From Escherichia phage vB_EfeM_pEP20, in the sequence record OQ743992: DNA of 64,000 nucleotides. One strand, 5' to 3'. Every line of letters starts with the position of its first letter. Position 1 is the stretch's first letter. The notes under the pieces were generated by a model, which did not search any database, was not told the DNA's origin, and saw only the letters and a program-made list of their open reading frames with translations. The position numbers were made by a program, and so were the translations under genes. Shown one piece after another: positions 7,725 through 21,217 of the stretch.

Positions 7725-8510
7725 TTAGTTCTTTGCGTCTAAGAAGGTAAGCTCTGGTGAAGAGAAGATTAACTCAATATCCTCATCAGTTCTTGCATAG
7801 ATATAAGCATCTGCATCACTGCCAAATGTTACTGCAATTCTGTGATTGCTCTTCGACAGGTGGGTAACTAGAGCGTTACTTAGAGACATCTTTTCAACCG
7901 GAGGGTTACTTTGATGTATCTTGCCTTTTCTTCGTCTGAAGAGGGTAACTGCATCATTAGTGAACACTACTACACCTGCAAAGTATTCTGGTTCACAGTA
8001 GTTCTTCCAACCTGAGCGTAACTTGTGGTACATCTCTCCTTCATAGACATATAGATACACATCTACACTCTTCATCACTTGATTAATGATAACTGTGACG
8101 GCTTGAGGGTCTAGTCCACCGATACCTGCACCAATCATAGGTAACCCAACTTTCTTCAACTGATTGACTTCACAGTATCTGTTAAGCTGTTTCAAAGATG
8201 ACTCTAAAGCACTGTATCGGGCATCTTTACCAGTCTTAAGCTGAGTGTAAAGGTTAGCTATACGACCTTGTTTTAAACGTGCTACAGAGAAATTACCTAG
8301 CAAATTTTCACAGGGTTTGTAGCCTATACCACCTGCATACAGATAAACTTCTGTATCAGTCTCATATGCTTTTGGGTAAAGTTTAGAAATCTTGTCAGCG
8401 ATACCTGCACCCATTAAGTTCATACAGTTGCAACCGTGACCGATGACGTCAAACTTACCTTTATCAAATGCTGCAAAGATATCACCATTGATGATTTTTA
8501 CAATACCCAT
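7725..8510 (-). CDS. Macrodomain protein (TARG1/OARD1- and DarG-like N-terminal domain plus about 110-aa C-terminal domain of unknown function)
   Basis: GDIF...HGCNCMNLMGAGIA and LPMIGAGIGGL resemble TARG1 GDLF...MGAGIA and MPRIGCGL; last gene of a coupled operon. Confidence 0.6.
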   Translation of the reverse strand: MGIVKIINGDIFAAFDKGKFDVIGHGCNCMNLMGAGIADKISKLYPKAYETDTEVYLYAGGIGYKPCENLLGNFSVARLKQGRIANLYTQLKTGKDARYSALESSLKQLNRYCEVNQLKKVGLPMIGAGIGGLDPQAVTVIINQVMKSVDVYLYVYEGEMYHKLRSGWKNYCEPEYFAGVVVFTNDAVTLFRRRKGKIHQSNPPVEKMSLSNALVTHLSKSNHRIAVTFGSDADAYIYARTDEDIELIFSSPELTFLDAKN

Positions 8511-15925: not shown

Positions 15926-16242
15926 GACTCACCTCTCATATTCTTGTAAAGGATAAAGCTTCTGTCATGGACGATACTTGTAGATACTGCAAAGTTACTT
16001 TCAAGCATCTGTTTGTTTGGATTGTAGAAGCTTTCTTTAAACTCGTCAAGTGCAAATTGGTGATTGTCTGGAAGACCCTTTACACACACCTTTATTGTGA
16101 TTGCTGCTGCAACCTTGCCAGTCAGTTCTTCTTTAGCTGCTACTAAAATTTTGTTAAGGAACTTATGACCATCTTCAGGCTTCTTGATGTTCTCCCAACG
16201 TTCTTCTAAGACAATGTTGATGTTCATCTCTTTGATTTTCAT
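15907..16242 (-). CDS. Hypothetical protein (111 aa)
   Basis: ORF with RBS ggaga. Confidence 0.45.
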   Translation of the reverse strand: MKIKEMNINIVLEERWENIKKPEDGHKFLNKILVAAKEELTGKVAAAITIKVCVKGLPDNHQFALDEFKESFYNPNKQMLESNFAVSTSIVHDRSFILYKNMRGESCKHIG

Positions 16243-16260
16243 AGTTTTCTCCAGAAATTA

Positions 16261-16285
16261 AAAAGGCTCCCGTAGGAGCCTCTTA
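16261..16285 (-). terminator. Intrinsic terminator after the NAMPT-like gene (GGCUCC-UACG-GGAGCC then U5)
   Basis: Stem-loop plus U run on minus-strand RNA. Confidence 0.55.
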
Positions 16286-16295
16286 TCATATACTT

Positions 16296-18077
16296 TTAAA
16301 GTTGCTTGTCAATATTATTTCGAATATCACCAAGAGTTGTGTAACCATACTGCTCAGAATCACTAAAGACTAAGCGTAGAGCGCAAGCTGGATGTTCAAG
16401 TGCATCTTCAAAGCTTTGGAATCCATAGCCATCTACAGCTTTCAGTTTATCACCATCCCACATAGGTGCTACACCACCAAAAGCAGACTTCTTAACACCA
16501 CTATCTGTTTTAGGGTCTTTTGCAATCATAATCTCTTTACCACCAATGCTTGCAAGAGTTGCTTTAACAGCAAATGCAAAGGTGTCACGAGTCATGTACT
16601 GGTAAGTGTAAGAGCCTACGCCAAACACTACGTTAGAGCTTGCAAAACCCATTTCATACAGACGCTTCAGGATTTCGTTTGCACGTTCCAGTGTGATAGA
16701 GTCACCATAGATAAGGCCAATGTGCTCATCCAGTACCTTAAAACCTTTGGAGTTGATAGTCCCTCCGAAGATGTTATACAGGGTCTTAATAGCCCCATCA
16801 ATCTCTGCTACAGGACGTGTTACAACGTTTGCAGAGCCAACCATATAAGCATTTTTCAACATCACTGTATCGGCAACTTCAAAGTCTTCTCTGTCAACAA
16901 CCATTTCGTAGCCTTCTGACAGTAGCCATCCAGCAATACCATAACTGATGTTTTCAAGCTTCATGTTCAGAACAGCATTCAACATCGTGTCGCTGGCTTC
17001 AAGCTTGCTTAAGTGTTCGTAATAAGCCTTTTTAGCACACTCTAAATGGATTGCTTTGTATCCTGTGACAATATGTACAGGGTCTCCAGAATCAGGACGA
17101 ATTACCAGTTTGCCATCACGTCCCATAATCTCTTTGCGGAGTTCTGGTAATATGACTGATACAGTCCTCCAGAAATTATAAGTATCTGAGACAACACTTG
17201 CAATACCAGTTGGGTAAGTCTCTGTTAAAAAACGATGGAAGGTTTGTAACTCACCTTTAAAACGTCTTTCATCTTCAATCAACTCATTACCACCTTCCCA
17301 AGCAATGTTTGCACACATTACAGAGTGTTCAGTGGCTGGTACAGAGCTACCAATATCAGAGATTGGGTAGGACTGTCCATAGATACGTTTAGCTGTATAC
17401 ACAGCAGGGAAGCTATCAGTTCCTTTAAAGCTGGTTAAGTGACCTACAGCGTTAAATGCGTCATCAGTAAAGCCAGACATACCACGCATAGCGAAGTCAT
17501 GGCACTGATAAGGTAAATGTAAGTCGTTGTCACAAGTAAGGTCAGCCCACTTCTTACAGATACGTTTGTAGTGCAATGCAATAGTTGCAATGGTACAAGC
17601 CTTCCAAATCTCAGCAGAGAAAGCATCTTCCAGATACCCCGCTACCCAATGGAAACCTGAAACAGTGTTCTGGAAGACAATCATTGGTACACGCATAGGG
17701 ACAACTGTGCCTTCTTCTACAGCGTATACTTCAACTGGCAGATAACCTAAGTCGTGAAGTGCTTCCCAATGCTCTCGACCAATAGCATCTTTACCCAGAA
17801 CACCGTTCATGACTTCTAAGATTTCGTCAATTGCTTCTTTTTTGTCACGTTCGAAGAAGGTGGCGTTCCAGTGGTCTATCAGGTAATCTTTAACAAAACG
17901 CTGAATACCAAAAGCAACTACACCATCAATTGCTAAGGGGCTGTTAAACCATTTGTCGCTACGTGGTGTCAGGTTGAACATCAAGTACTCTGTTGCACTA
18001 GGATACTGGTAGATGTGACCAGATTTGTAAGCATCTGCGTTTAAACCTGCTGGTACTGCATAAAGTGATTTAGTCAT
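16296..18077 (-). CDS. Nicotinamide phosphoribosyltransferase family protein (NAMPT/NadV-like; candidate Namat of NARP1)
   Basis: N-terminal NADAYKSGHIYQYP matches NAMPT DSYKxxHxxQYP signature; 593 aa; adjacent to PRPP-synthetase-like gene. Confidence 0.75.
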   Translation of the reverse strand: MTKSLYAVPAGLNADAYKSGHIYQYPSATEYLMFNLTPRSDKWFNSPLAIDGVVAFGIQRFVKDYLIDHWNATFFERDKKEAIDEILEVMNGVLGKDAIGREHWEALHDLGYLPVEVYAVEEGTVVPMRVPMIVFQNTVSGFHWVAGYLEDAFSAEIWKACTIATIALHYKRICKKWADLTCDNDLHLPYQCHDFAMRGMSGFTDDAFNAVGHLTSFKGTDSFPAVYTAKRIYGQSYPISDIGSSVPATEHSVMCANIAWEGGNELIEDERRFKGELQTFHRFLTETYPTGIASVVSDTYNFWRTVSVILPELRKEIMGRDGKLVIRPDSGDPVHIVTGYKAIHLECAKKAYYEHLSKLEASDTMLNAVLNMKLENISYGIAGWLLSEGYEMVVDREDFEVADTVMLKNAYMVGSANVVTRPVAEIDGAIKTLYNIFGGTINSKGFKVLDEHIGLIYGDSITLERANEILKRLYEMGFASSNVVFGVGSYTYQYMTRDTFAFAVKATLASIGGKEIMIAKDPKTDSGVKKSAFGGVAPMWDGDKLKAVDGYGFQSFEDALEHPACALRLVFSDSEQYGYTTLGDIRNNIDKQL

Positions 18078-18122
18078 CTTTTAATCTCTCTCAAAATGGG
18101 GCTTTTAAGCCCCTATAAAGTT

Positions 18123-19004
18123 TTAATCAAGGTTGGCTACAGTAACTTGGCCATAATGTGTTAAGCCACGGTCTTTAGCTTCCCCTAAAGAGTTTGTAGT
18201 GTAGATGTGGTCAATGCCGTTGTCAAGAAGGTTTTCAACATCTTTAGAGAAGATACCATGTGTTACATAGAGTTCCACACGTTTTGCACCTGCTTCACGA
18301 AGATGTTTAGCTGCTTCTATGAAGGTTCGGCCCCCATCACAAATATCATCCAGAATCATGACGGTTTTATCTGTCAAATCAACATCATCAAGGATTCGCA
18401 TACCAGTAATTTCACCAGTCTTAAGGTTACGCACTTTAGACATTGTGATGTATGGTTTATCCACCTCTTTAGCAGTCTCTGCAATCTTCTTAGCAGCACC
18501 TGCATCTGGGGCTACTAAGTAATCAACCAGTGGGTCATTTGCATAGTGGACTGCAATTTCCTTTTGAGGAATACTCTGGAAGCAGTTAAATAGGTTATCT
18601 GGTACATAACTGTGAGGGTCAACTGCACAGACTGCATCAAAATCCATTGCATTAACCTGTTGTGCAAACACTTTCAAAGCTGCTGCATCGCCTTTAAACA
18701 TGTGACGGTCATAACGTGCATTTGGCAAATAGTAAAAGATAATGGTCTTCATAGCAAATTTATGAGGTACTAAATCATCAATTGCTTCTTTAGCAAGTGC
18801 CACAGCAAACAATGTGTCTTTATCATAACCTTTTACAATCATAATCACATTGTTGATGGATGATGCTGCATAAGCAGTGAAATCAACAAACTCTGGTGAA
18901 AAGTGTCCACCAATCTCACCAGAAGGGAATTGGATGATGTTAAACTCTTCTTCGTGAGTCCCTTTAGTGGGTGAATGGACTGTAACACGGATAGATGTTT
19001 TCAT
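18123..19004 (-). CDS. Ribose-phosphate pyrophosphokinase (PRPP synthetase)-like protein; candidate Adps of NARP1
   Basis: PRPP-binding loop VMILDDICDGGRT; start moved to ATG (MKTSIRV...); 293 aa. Confidence 0.7.
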   Translation of the reverse strand: MKTSIRVTVHSPTKGTHEEEFNIIQFPSGEIGGHFSPEFVDFTAYAASSINNVIMIVKGYDKDTLFAVALAKEAIDDLVPHKFAMKTIIFYYLPNARYDRHMFKGDAAALKVFAQQVNAMDFDAVCAVDPHSYVPDNLFNCFQSIPQKEIAVHYANDPLVDYLVAPDAGAAKKIAETAKEVDKPYITMSKVRNLKTGEITGMRILDDVDLTDKTVMILDDICDGGRTFIEAAKHLREAGAKRVELYVTHGIFSKDVENLLDNGIDHIYTTNSLGEAKDRGLTHYGQVTVANLD

Positions 19005-19015
19005 AGTTTTCTCTC

Positions 19016-19294
19016 TCAATCAAAAGTTACGTTTGTTACTGCCATTGCAGATTTGCATTTTGCAGGGTCTACAACGTGATAAAGCACACTACAGTTGCCT
19101 GTGCTGTCTGGTACAGGCTTTACCCATTGTTGCTTGACAGTTGGTTCTCCTAAATCTTTGTATGAACCATCTGTAAAATTGTTTACCATCTCAAGTGCAA
19201 TTGGTTCTGGAACATGACCTCGTATCATGTACATCTCACAACCATTACCACCTTCGCTAACTAATGGTAAAATCTCCCACTTTTCTTTAGCCAT
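19016..19294 (-). CDS. Hypothetical protein (92 aa)
   Basis: ORF; overlaps the HNH gene end by 8 nt. Confidence 0.4.
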   Translation of the reverse strand: MAKEKWEILPLVSEGGNGCEMYMIRGHVPEPIALEMVNNFTDGSYKDLGEPTVKQQWVKPVPDSTGNCSVLYHVVDPAKCKSAMAVTNVTFD

Positions 19295-19802
19295 TGTAAG
19301 TTGCCCTATAAACTGTCTCGAACTTCAACAGGAGAGATATTGCCAAATCTGTATAGTTGTTGTCAAGCACATCTGGCATATTATTTTTGATATATTTCTC
19401 TTGCTCTTCATAGGTCATCTTAGGGGTGCTTAGAAGGTTATTTCCTTGCTTCTGGTTATCAGCTTTAGTTTGGATAAACCAGTTTGCACAGTGATGTTCA
19501 CCACCTTTTGTAACAGGTTTGTGATGACCTAATGTGAAGGCTTGATTACCTGTATATCTGCAAAGTTTATTGAGTACTGTGATGGTGTTCTTCACAACAA
19601 AACATTCATACAGGTTATCTATGGTGTAATGTGGGTAATATCGGAATAATGCTCTTTCACGAGTGCTCTCACGATTCCAGAGAATCATGTGATTGGAGTT
19701 GGAAGGGTCGTATTGGTGGGAGTCAATGAACTCTTGACGTTCCTCAAAGCTGAGTCTTAGAACTGACATTGCAGCCGAACGTTTCAGGTTTGACAGATAC
19801 AT
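19287..19802 (-). CDS. HNH homing endonuclease-like protein (171 aa)
   Basis: LGHHKPVTKGGEHHCANWFIQTKADNQKQ resembles HNH motif HH..P...GG....N....C...N..K. Confidence 0.55.
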   Translation of the reverse strand: MYLSNLKRSAAMSVLRLSFEERQEFIDSHQYDPSNSNHMILWNRESTRERALFRYYPHYTIDNLYECFVVKNTITVLNKLCRYTGNQAFTLGHHKPVTKGGEHHCANWFIQTKADNQKQGNNLLSTPKMTYEEQEKYIKNNMPDVLDNNYTDLAISLLLKFETVYRATYNG

Positions 19803-19810
19803 ATTCTCTC

Positions 19811-19840
19811 CAAAATAAAAAGGGAACCTTTACAGTTCCC
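19811..19840 (-). terminator. Intrinsic terminator (GGGAAC stem then U5AU4)
   Basis: Stem-loop plus U run on minus-strand RNA. Confidence 0.5.
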
Positions 19841-19853
19841 TTATAGTATCTGT

Positions 19854-20174
19854 TTACTGAGCTACTTTCAAGATGCTTGTGAATGAAATCTCACTCTCAT
19901 CCATAAATTCTTTTGCTTCTCCAGTAACTTTTACAAAGTTATCTAGGCAGATAATTTTCTTATCTTTCTTGCTGTAGGTTAACTTAACCTTTTCAATATC
20001 TTTCTTAGAACTTTTCTCTTCATTAAAGAGTTTTACAGCTTCTTTGAATGGTAGATATGAGCCGTCATTATCACTAATGAATCCTGTACCACAATAGTAG
20101 TAGTTATACTCTTTAGCCATAAACTGGCACAGTACGAAAATCTGTAATTTACGAGTGTTATAAACTTTGCTCAT
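19854..20174 (-). CDS. Hypothetical protein (106 aa)
   Basis: ORF. Confidence 0.45.
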   Translation of the reverse strand: MSKVYNTRKLQIFVLCQFMAKEYNYYYCGTGFISDNDGSYLPFKEAVKLFNEEKSSKKDIEKVKLTYSKKDKKIICLDNFVKVTGEAKEFMDESEISFTSILKVAQ

Positions 20175-21182: not shown

Positions 21183-21217
21183 CTAGTTACCTCACCAATA
21201 TTATTTAAGCCTTTTAC

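Follow-up and report, generated by a model that had tools for sequence, protein, structure and literature searches.

The pathway closest to the locus described here is NARP1, which was defined by the deletion of genes 79-80 in the Felixounavirus Bas63 (JohannRWettstein; MZ501086.1) (bioRxiv 10.1101/2024.02.11.579819). Without these two genes, Bas63 was ~20-fold sensitised to SIR2-HerA; ADPR-PP was seen only when the wild-type phage infected defence-carrying cells, and the rescue was independent of both pncC and nadR (10.1101/2024.02.11.579819). The in vitro biochemistry of the two enzymes, Adps and Namat, comes from the homologues of SPbetaL1, ICP1, DyoEdafos and P. foliorum. The catalytic residues of ICP1 Adps were defined from apo, ADPR/ATP-bound and product structures, with Phe18 of the neighbouring protomer and Phe92 as aromatic contacts to the adenine of ADPR (PMC13586617). 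The selectivity clamp of Namat consists of the SCH motif GS-X-Phi-X-Phi-X-Phi-TRD, where X is aromatic, plus a stacking residue in the SCL (PMC12774641). Two variants have the same Adps and Namat core, namely NARP1-AP (Adps-Adpp-Namat, Vibrio phage Gary; 10.64898/2026.01.28.702374) and the RyDEP-containing NARP1 of phage DyoEdafos (10.64898/2026.05.28.727677), and the PRPS and NAMPT superfamilies are also found in NARP2 (NadV/Nampt plus Nmnat, Vibrio phage KVP40) and in cellular Prs/NadV salvage.

We compared with these systems a pair of adjacent minus-strand genes at positions 16296-19004 of the window, that is, the whole 64,000-nucleotide stretch of Escherichia phage vB_EfeM_pEP20 (OQ743992) analysed here. 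The window belongs to a Felixounavirus (Felix-O1-type) and has a DNA identity of ~95% (94-96%) to many E. coli and Salmonella phage records. The pair is very probably the Felixounavirus copy of the two-gene NARP1 (Adps plus Namat) counter-defence operon, a reading to which we give a probability of about 0.93. The first gene, adps (18123..19004, minus strand), was assigned as a PRPP-synthetase-like ADP-ribose diphosphokinase of 293 aa from the ORF list, profile matches, identity to Bas63 gp79, the published Adps table and residue alignment. The second, namat (16296..18077, minus strand), was assigned as a NAMPT-like nicotinamide ADP-ribose transferase of 593 aa from the ORF list, its match to phrog_448, identity to Bas63 gp80, PDB and fold matches and NAD contacts. 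The ORF list contains adps in a TTG-start form (18123..19019), with an internal ATG at 19004 giving the 293-aa protein (MKTSIRV...); the TTG at 19019 is unlikely to be the start. A spacer of 45 nt separates the two same-strand genes in an operon-like arrangement, and each is preceded by a GAGAG-type ribosome-binding site. The sequence-only reading had described a 293-aa PRPP-synthetase-family gene directly upstream of a 593-aa NAMPT-family gene, which agrees with these ORFs, and the two motifs that it quoted were located in the translations: the PRTase loop VMILDDICDGGRT at aa 215-227 of Adps and the NAMPT-family motif NADAYKSGHIYQYP at aa 13-26 of Namat. In profile searches, Adps matched Pfam Pribosyltran/Pribosyl_synth, TIGR01251 (1.7e-34) and phrog_619 (1.7e-97), and Namat matched PF04095 (1.3e-34), NF006629 (3.9e-140) and phrog_448 (1.3e-201), so that both family assignments are far beyond chance.

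The founding operon (bas63_0079 for Adps, bas63_0080 for Namat) comes from the same genus and has the same gene order, neighbours and protein lengths (293 and 593 aa) as the pair in the window. Namat is 97% identical to Bas63 gp80 (578/593, gap-free) and Adps 80% identical to gp79 (234/293, gap-free). Both phages are collinear over nrdD, nrdG, gp77-80, rIIA and rIIB. They agree further in the terminator and the hairpin of the spacer and, within Namat, in the insertion and the residues of the selectivity clamp (all described below), whereas two small genes of Bas63, bas63_0081 (directly downstream of its namat) and bas63_0072, are absent from the window. The two genes are under purifying selection: comparison with Bas63 gives a dN/dS of 0.036 in Namat and, over the C-terminal half of Adps, of 0.056. 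The exact N-terminal allele of the window Adps has 63 entries among the Adps homologues tabulated in the NARP1 paper (10.1101/2024.02.11.579819), and the Bas63-type Namat carries the label 'Adps-associated' in the published table. Judged from identity and collinearity, the relationship of the pair to the founding operon is one of orthology, beyond mere similarity. The earlier proposal that it encodes the Adps/Namat pathway of NAD+ reconstitution is supported because the operon is orthologous to, and collinear with, Bas63 genes 79-80 and its Adps allele is in the published table. The NARP1 system found here is thus already known: it is re-identified in the genus of its discovery, carriers of the same Adps allele have already been catalogued, and the finding as such matters little. 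Its practical value lies in annotation, almost all GenBank records still naming the pair as ribose-phosphate pyrophosphokinase and nicotinamide or nicotinate phosphoribosyltransferase.

By orthology to Bas63, the window proteins are predicted to have the corresponding enzyme activities and anti-defence phenotype. NAD+ would be split into ADP-ribose and nicotinamide by an NADase of the host's defences, for example SIR2-HerA, DSR or type I Thoeris. Adps would then transfer the beta-gamma pyrophosphate of ATP to the 1'' position of ADP-ribose, giving ADPR-PP, and Namat would convert nicotinamide and ADPR-PP into NAD+ and pyrophosphate by NAMPT-type chemistry. Such a direct route back to NAD+ would bypass NMN and would work without NadR or PncC of the host. 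For Felixounavirus therapy candidates, resistance to NAD+-depleting defences can be expected.

The residues of Adps agree with this predicted activity. Like the window protein, ICP1 Adps is a PRPS-like two-domain enzyme, with 29% identity between them, and residues R97, H131, D167, K190, D219, D220, D223 and F228 of the window Adps align with ICP1 R87, H121, D161, K185, D212, D213, D216 and F221. R97, H131, D167, K190, D219, D220 and D223 occupy invariant columns of a six-sequence Adps alignment, and K190, the catalytic beta-hairpin lysine, also aligns with K162 of SPbetaL1. The donor site differs, ICP1 having the PP loop CDGAAS and F223 whereas the window protein has CDGGRT and E230. MAFFT put T16 and M102 in the columns of the adenine contacts Phe18 and Phe92 of ICP1, N-terminal alignments being unstable at this divergence; we dropped the mapping of these two residues as unreliable. 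From the sequence, F26 in the QFPSGE motif of Adps may be a candidate equivalent of an ICP1 adenine-contact Phe. A PDB sequence search with Adps returned, for the copy searched, canonical PRPS matches only (best 4TWB, 6e-18).

Namat was compared with that of SPbetaL1. The SPbetaL1 NARP1 has the same two-gene order, with identities of 29% for Adps and ~48% for Namat, the catalytic lysine (K162/K190) is conserved, and the SCH motif occurs in both. The best PDB sequence match of the window Namat was SPbetaL1 Namat (9W5W/9W5X, E 6e-128), and its AF2 model (pLDDT 92.6) had the same entries as best fold match (TM 0.95, target-normalised), the Namat crystal structures ranking ahead of HdNadV and mammalian NAMPT. 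All the NAD-contact residues of SPbetaL1 (contacts per PMC12774641) are conserved or conservatively replaced. In the NAMPT-type core, SPbetaL1 D13, Y15, F189, R192, D215, the catalytic His (in a TEHS motif), R306 and D308 correspond to window D15, Y17, F195, R198, D221, H251, R327 and D329, all invariant in an alignment of 31 sequences. The SCH motif reads GSYTYQYMTRD (aa 488-498), and the SCL (...TPRSDKWF...) contains the stacking pair K42-W43, identical to that of Bas63, where SPbetaL1 has R40. The window Namat also differs from that of SPbetaL1 by an extra 85-aa subdomain and by a second insertion of ~15 aa at aa 257-275.

A 261-aa ORF at 7725-8510 encodes a macrodomain protein, Tk.4/Poa1p-like, at 7.8 kb and ~15 genes from namat. 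It was the sole macrodomain ORF found among the ORFs scanned, and none of the ORFs flanking the pair within two genes contained a Macro domain. We looked for an accessory Macro/Adpp or RyR/RyDEP gene in or beside the operon by domain searches of the flanking ORFs and found neither; the window operon thus differs from NARP1-AP in having no Macro gene and from the RyDEP-containing NARP1 in having no RyR-domain gene. It differs from NARP2 in the partner, here an Adps-clade PRPS homologue and not an NMNAT, none of which was detected among the neighbouring ORFs scanned, and in the adenine clamp, present in Namat and absent from Nampt.

The alternative that survives best keeps the core pair and adds the unlinked macrodomain protein as a distal Adpp, in a split NARP1-AP that could dephosphorylate ADPR-1''-phosphate to ADPR and so counter aRES-type defences. 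In the 261-aa ORF the Macro model PF01661 scores above its cutoff (E 1.1e-7), and an alignment of aa 3-154 spans almost the full length of the characterised Gary Adpp (E 9e-14 at 26% identity), with the motifs CNC...MG.GIA and GLP.IG.G in common; tblastn matches of the ORF include Adps-adjacent 'phosphatase' genes of the Vibrio phages Thalassa, Ceto and Direpillow8. A distal copy would also escape the published survey, which covered two genes either way from NARP1. Nevertheless, the gene lies far from namat, it belongs to a very broad family with 2860 phage records, and the protein, which has an additional C-terminal region of ~100 aa of unknown function, is nearer to T4 Tk.4 (~35% identity) than to Adpp. 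We know of no NARP1 in T4. The DarG macrodomain model matches as well (E 3e-13), and the protein could equally be a de-ADP-ribosylase acting against DarT-like toxins. On balance we consider a split NARP1-AP doubtful.

A second alternative is ordinary salvage, in which a true PRPP synthetase and a NadV/NAMPT would yield NMN, with ribose-5-phosphate, ATP and nicotinamide as starting materials, and NadR or PncC of the host would complete NAD+. The annotation by Pfam, NCBIfam and PHROGs, like that of almost every GenBank record, follows this reading, and the scores of TIGR01251 and NF006629 are just above their curated cutoffs (Adps reaches 119 bits in TIGR01251, a broad subfamily model whose cutoff is 113). 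Namat homologues, moreover, retain PRPP-dependent NMN synthesis in vitro, at about half of the activity of human NAMPT (PMC12774641), and by analogy the window Namat may have a minor NadV-like activity. However, in the equivalog models for Prs, Adps stays far below cutoff (106 vs 296 for NF002095, 62 vs 438 for NF002844 and 56 vs 536 for NF003428), which, together with its 80% identity to Bas63 and the published-table allele, identifies it as an Adps-clade PRPS homologue and not a cellular Prs. The Adps of both SPbetaL1 and ICP1 use ADPR. The profile comparison of characterised Adps/Namat with canonical Prs, put forward together with the NARP1 reading, came out in favour of the former, with the catalytic residues of Adps and the clamp residues of Namat both present. 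We reject a canonical Prs plus NadV, which we regard as very unlikely, because the Bas63 orthologue rescues independently of pncC and nadR with accumulation of ADPR-PP (10.1101/2024.02.11.579819), the Prs equivalogs fail and the Namat-specific adenine clamp is present. It is scarcely credible that the pair has a housekeeping role, raising NAD+ for phage nucleotide and DNA metabolism even in defence-free hosts, as its location in an early nucleotide-metabolism cluster beside nrdA, nrdB, nrdD and nrdG might suggest, since in Bas63 ADPR-PP formed only with an NAD+-cleaving defence present and the NARP1 substrate ADPR is scarce without NADase activity (10.1101/2024.02.11.579819).

The NARP1 pair appears to be part of a larger transcription unit. 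Downstream of namat, as the sequence-only reading had noticed, there is a minus-strand intrinsic-terminator-like hairpin (16261..16284) with a 10-bp G+C-rich stem, a 4-nt loop and a T-run; it begins 11 nt past the namat stop codon, is identical in Bas63 and probably marks where the unit ends on its 3' side. Within the 45-nt gap between the two genes, a second minus-strand hairpin (18098..18113), GGGGC-TTAAAA-GCCCC followed by ATTTTG, has a stem identical in Bas63 despite differing flanking bases, and may act as a partial terminator or RNA-stability element. Upstream of adps are two more minus-strand genes, identified from the ORF list and PHROGs: ORF92 (19016..19294; 92 aa, phrog_4726, orthologue of bas63_0078), which stops 11 nt short of the adps ATG, and ORF171 (19287..19802; 171 aa, phrog_3500, of unknown function, orthologue of the hypothetical bas63_0077), which overlaps ORF92 by 8 nt. 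Both are probably co-transcribed with adps and namat. A sigma-70-like promoter (TTGAAA-17-TACTAT) directly followed by a terminator-like hairpin (19820..19871, minus strand), conserved in Bas63, is the probable 5' boundary of this four-gene unit of ORF171, ORF92, adps and namat; the same layout of promoter, hairpin and ribosome-binding site also occurs at 16312 and 24182. Since ORF92 and ORF171 are restricted to Ounavirinae-type phages, their co-occurrence with NARP1 provides no independent evidence.

An HNH endonuclease had also been described as flanking the pair. What remains of it is the weakly HNH-like ORF171, in which a string HHKPVTKGGEH...N...N is visible by eye and a single model, phrog_2214, matches at E 5.5e-5; Pfam, NCBIfam and PDB sequence searches gave no HNH match, and ORF92 lies between ORF171 and adps. 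PDB matches of ORF171 to protein A repeats were discarded as a summed-repeat artefact, each single domain having E >= 26. Its position is the same in Bas63 and most relatives, unlike that of a sporadic homing element. The idea that the pair is a separately and recently acquired, HNH-flanked module did not hold: at least 226 of the 258 matching phage records carry the block in the same place and between the same genes, its G+C content (0.39-0.42) is unremarkable against the window range (0.36-0.42), and the HNH signal is weak, with ORF92 intervening.

Three features of the locus are modest leads on how NARP1 may be tuned or extended in this lineage: an insert in Namat, two allele classes of Adps and the distal macrodomain. 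That Ounavirinae have a NARP1 with all these extras, combining a functional Namat insert, recombining Adps alleles at a counter-defence hotspot and a distal Adpp-like macrodomain, seems improbable to us. The insert is a lineage-specific alpha/beta subdomain at aa 342-427 (85 aa; 16797..17054, minus strand), Ounavirinae-specific and lacking in the homologues of SPbetaL1, ICP1, bacteria and humans. It is confidently folded in the model and under strong purifying selection, and a fold search detected no relative. Conceivable roles are regulation of Namat, docking of Namat to the Adps hexamer and protection of the enzyme against a host inhibitor.

The N-terminal half of Adps, which forms the hexamer core and the acceptor side, exists as two old allele classes. 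In the window, the first ~500 nt of adps are an allele differing from that of Bas63, the first 300 nt having 62-68% nucleotide identity and synonymous sites being saturated, and the N-terminal ~180 aa are ~65-70% identical to the Bas63 allele tested in vivo. These classes may be ancient, and recombination may swap them at a variable junction next to the allele region, between ORF92 and adps. At this junction, 0-4 tandem phrog_29478 genes occur, differing among relatives (Pr103Blw and vB_CECAV_041 are examples of phages that have them), which suggests a counter-defence hotspot.

Both genes of the pair are present on the minus strand exactly where the sequence-only reading had placed them: adps, which encodes a PRPP-synthetase-family protein of 293 aa, at 18123..19004 (from an internal ATG at 19004; a longer ORF, 18123..19019, begins with TTG), and namat, which encodes a NAMPT-family protein of 593 aa, at 16296..18077. 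The two peptides quoted in that reading were also found, VMILDDICDGGRT at aa 215-227 of Adps and NADAYKSGHIYQYP at aa 13-26 of Namat. Profile matches made the family assignment of both proteins unambiguous: Adps matched Pfam Pribosyltran and Pribosyl_synth, TIGR01251 (1.7e-34) and phrog_619, "ribose-phosphate pyrophosphokinase" (1.7e-97), and Namat matched PF04095/PF18127, NF006629 (3.9e-140) and phrog_448, "nicotinamide phosphoribosyl transferase" (1.3e-201). The pair is flanked by rIIA, rIIB, NrdD and NrdG. By megablast, the window shared 94-96% DNA identity with ~250 Felixounavirus phages of Escherichia, Salmonella, Shigella and Citrobacter, in whose records the two genes are nearly always labelled "ribose-phosphate pyrophosphokinase" and "nicotinamide (or nicotinate) phosphoribosyltransferase".

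NARP1 was discovered in a Felixounavirus (bioRxiv 10.1101/2024.02.11.579819), the phage Bas63 (JohannRWettstein, MZ501086.1), which is collinear with the window from nrdD to rIIB. Its bas63_0079 and bas63_0080 proteins (293 and 593 aa) are equal in length to the window Adps and Namat, with which they align gap-free at 80% (234/293) and 97% (578/593) identity, respectively. Furthermore, the N-terminus of the window Adps (MKTSIRVTVHSPTKGTHEEEF...) occurs 63 times in the supplementary table of Adps homologues of the same study (10.1101/2024.02.11.579819), for example in wV8 and SPT-1. Judged by sequence, the window pair is an orthologue of the founding NARP1 example and, given this orthology and the 63 entries in a published table, has already been catalogued. 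The genes of NARP1, their orthology, their residues and their operon anatomy can be read directly in this phage. The core system is a textbook case of published NARP1 in its genus of discovery; the side observations around the pair are minor, testable leads.

By orthology, Adps would use ATP to pyrophosphorylate the ADP-ribose released by a defence NADase, and Namat would condense ADPR-PP and nicotinamide directly into NAD+. We infer this activity, and the associated phenotype, for this particular phage from work on its homologues. Osterman et al. reported that Bas63 without genes 79-80 plated ~20-fold more poorly on SIR2-HerA cells, that rescue needed neither host pncC nor nadR, and that ADPR-PP (m/z 720.01) appeared only when wild-type phage infected cells carrying the defence; their enzyme assays then used the SpbetaL1 homologues (10.1101/2024.02.11.579819). 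The main rival explanation, an ordinary Prs and NadV producing NMN, is contradicted by these genetics; with the scores of Adps against Prs equivalog models under threshold and a selectivity clamp in Namat also speaking against it, we consider it very improbable. The proposal that the pair constitutes NARP1 was thus upheld by the Bas63 orthology, the catalytic residues and the Namat clamp, its mobile-module part excepted.

The selectivity clamp of Namat comprises the SCH motif, GS-X-Phi-X-Phi-X-Phi-TRD (X being aromatic), and the SCL stacking residue (PMC12774641). The window Namat carries GSYTYQYMTRD at aa 488-498 as SCH and TPRSDKWF as SCL, the latter including K42-W43, which follows the same Lys-then-stacker order as Bas63 Namat (PMC12774641). 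All NAD+-contact residues of SpbetaL1 are identical or conservatively replaced in the window protein (D15, Y17, F195, R198, D221, A248, H251, R327 and D329, as well as G458, D459, S460, G488, S489, Y490, Y494, T496, R497 and D498). The best fold matches of an AlphaFold2 model built with 31 homologues as input (pLDDT 92.6) were the crystal structures of Namat, 9W5X and 9W5W (target-normalised TM 0.95); NadV of H. ducreyi and NAMPT from mammals ranked lower.

The window Namat has an insertion of ~85 aa (aa 342-427, window 16797-17054) that its SpbetaL1, ICP1 and bacterial homologues lack. This insertion is confined to the Namat genes of 253 Ounavirinae-type records and is not discussed in the Namat structure paper (PMC12774641). 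Its dN/dS of 0.015 indicates strong purifying selection, and it was confidently modelled as a small alpha/beta domain, which had no match in Pfam and no fold relative in the PDB or BFVD. Other Namat lineages carry different insertions in the same loop. A further insertion, of ~15 aa, lies at aa 257-275.

Alignment of Adps from the window, Bas63, ICP1, SpbetaL1 and two other published sequences placed K190 in the column of the catalytic Lys (SpbetaL1 K162, ICP1 K185). Likewise, R97, H131, D167, D219, D220, D223 and F228 correspond to ICP1 R87, H121, D161, D212, D213, D216 and F221, which have been structurally defined (PMC13586617). No position could be confidently assigned to counterparts of Phe18 and Phe92, which stack on adenine in ICP1 Adps, because N-terminal alignments were unstable. 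Every score against the Prs equivalog models fell far under its cutoff, only the broad TIGR01251 subfamily model being just exceeded, a pattern that fits a divergent PRPS-family member. Comparison with Bas63 gave dN/dS values of 0.036 (Namat) and 0.056 (C-terminal half of Adps); therefore, selection maintains both genes.

The sequence-only reading had further proposed a separately acquired module flanked by an HNH endonuclease and a terminator. The supposed endonuclease gene, ORF171 (19287..19802, minus strand, 171 aa), best matched phrog_3500 ("unknown function"). Its HNH signal came solely from a marginal match to phrog_2214 (E 5.5e-5), with no support in Pfam, NCBIfam or the PDB, although some GenBank records label it a homing endonuclease and its string HHKPVTKGGEH...N...N resembles an HNH/HNN core. 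Moreover, a 92-aa ORF (ORF92, 19016..19294, minus strand) lies between it and adps. Most relatives, and Bas63 with its bas63_0077 and bas63_0078, have counterparts of both ORFs at the same site, and the G+C content of the pair is unremarkable. Since the HNH signal is weak, the neighbours conserved and the G+C ordinary, nothing marks the pair as a recent separate module, and we rejected its recent acquisition in this phage.

The terminator proposed in the sequence-only reading corresponds to a hairpin with a G+C-rich 10-bp stem and a T-run (minus strand, 16284..16261), which begins 11 nt past the Namat stop. It belongs to a recurring cassette, conserved in Bas63, in which a sigma-70-like promoter leads directly into a terminator-like hairpin, with a T-run, RBS and ATG after it. 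On the minus strand, one copy precedes ORF171 (19871-19820), another lies between namat and the next gene (16312-16261) and a third precedes nrdD (~24182). Transcription would be expected to start where the 5' arm of the hairpin lies; the hairpin may therefore stop only read-through transcripts from upstream. The first two copies bracket ORF171-ORF92-adps-namat, an anatomy that suggests a four-gene transcription unit. Within this block, adps and namat are 45 nt apart, each preceded by a GAGAG-type Shine-Dalgarno sequence, and their spacer contains a hairpin (GGGGC-TTAAAA-GCCCC followed by ATTTTG; 18098-18113, minus strand) whose stem is kept in Bas63 while the flanking bases differ. This hairpin may act as a partial terminator or serve RNA stability, as an element that sets the Adps:Namat ratio.

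A gene for a 261-aa Macro domain protein, labelled "putative phosphatase" in Bas63 and relatives, lies 7.8 kb from namat (7725-8510, minus strand). The survey that covered NARP1-AP (Adps-Adpp-Namat, Adpp being an ADPR-1''-phosphate phosphatase with a Macro domain) scanned two genes on each side of NARP1 and would therefore have missed a copy at this distance (10.64898/2026.01.28.702374). The protein aligned with nearly the full length of the characterised Adpp (26% identity, E 9e-14) and has ~100 additional C-terminal aa. A role in feeding NARP1 is only a lead, because the protein belongs to a very broad family, with 2860 phage records, is nearer to Tk.4 of T4 than to Adpp and matches the macrodomain model of DarG as well, and T4 is not known to carry NARP1.

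The 5' half of adps (window 18500-19004, minus strand) shows a sharp drop in identity to Bas63 from a level of ~95%. Nucleotide identity is 90-99% 5' of the gene, falls to 62-68% from exactly the ATG for ~300 nt, reaches 78-83% in the 200 nt after that and recovers ~500 nt past the start codon; codons 1-100 show saturation at synonymous sites (pS 0.78). By tblastn, the N-terminal 180 aa were at least 90% identical in 155 phage records and 60-80% in 97, with none at 80-90%. This bimodality, the saturated sites and the sharp breakpoint are best explained if the N-terminal domain of Adps exists in two old allele classes, swapped by recombination in this phage group. The breakpoint coincides with a variable hotspot directly 5' of NARP1, the ORF92/adps junction (window 19005-19015), where tandem phrog_29478 paralogues, absent from the window and Bas63, number two in the related Felixounavirus Pr103Blw (L004:3891-4841) and four in vB_CECAV_041 (L005:3375-5101). 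Bas63 also has two genes that the window lacks, bas63_0081 (114 aa, phrog_20372) immediately 3' of namat (~16240-16260) and bas63_0072 (99 aa, DUF5499-like, phrog_1774; ~21200-21212), both cases being presence/absence polymorphisms of small genes at the boundaries of cassettes.
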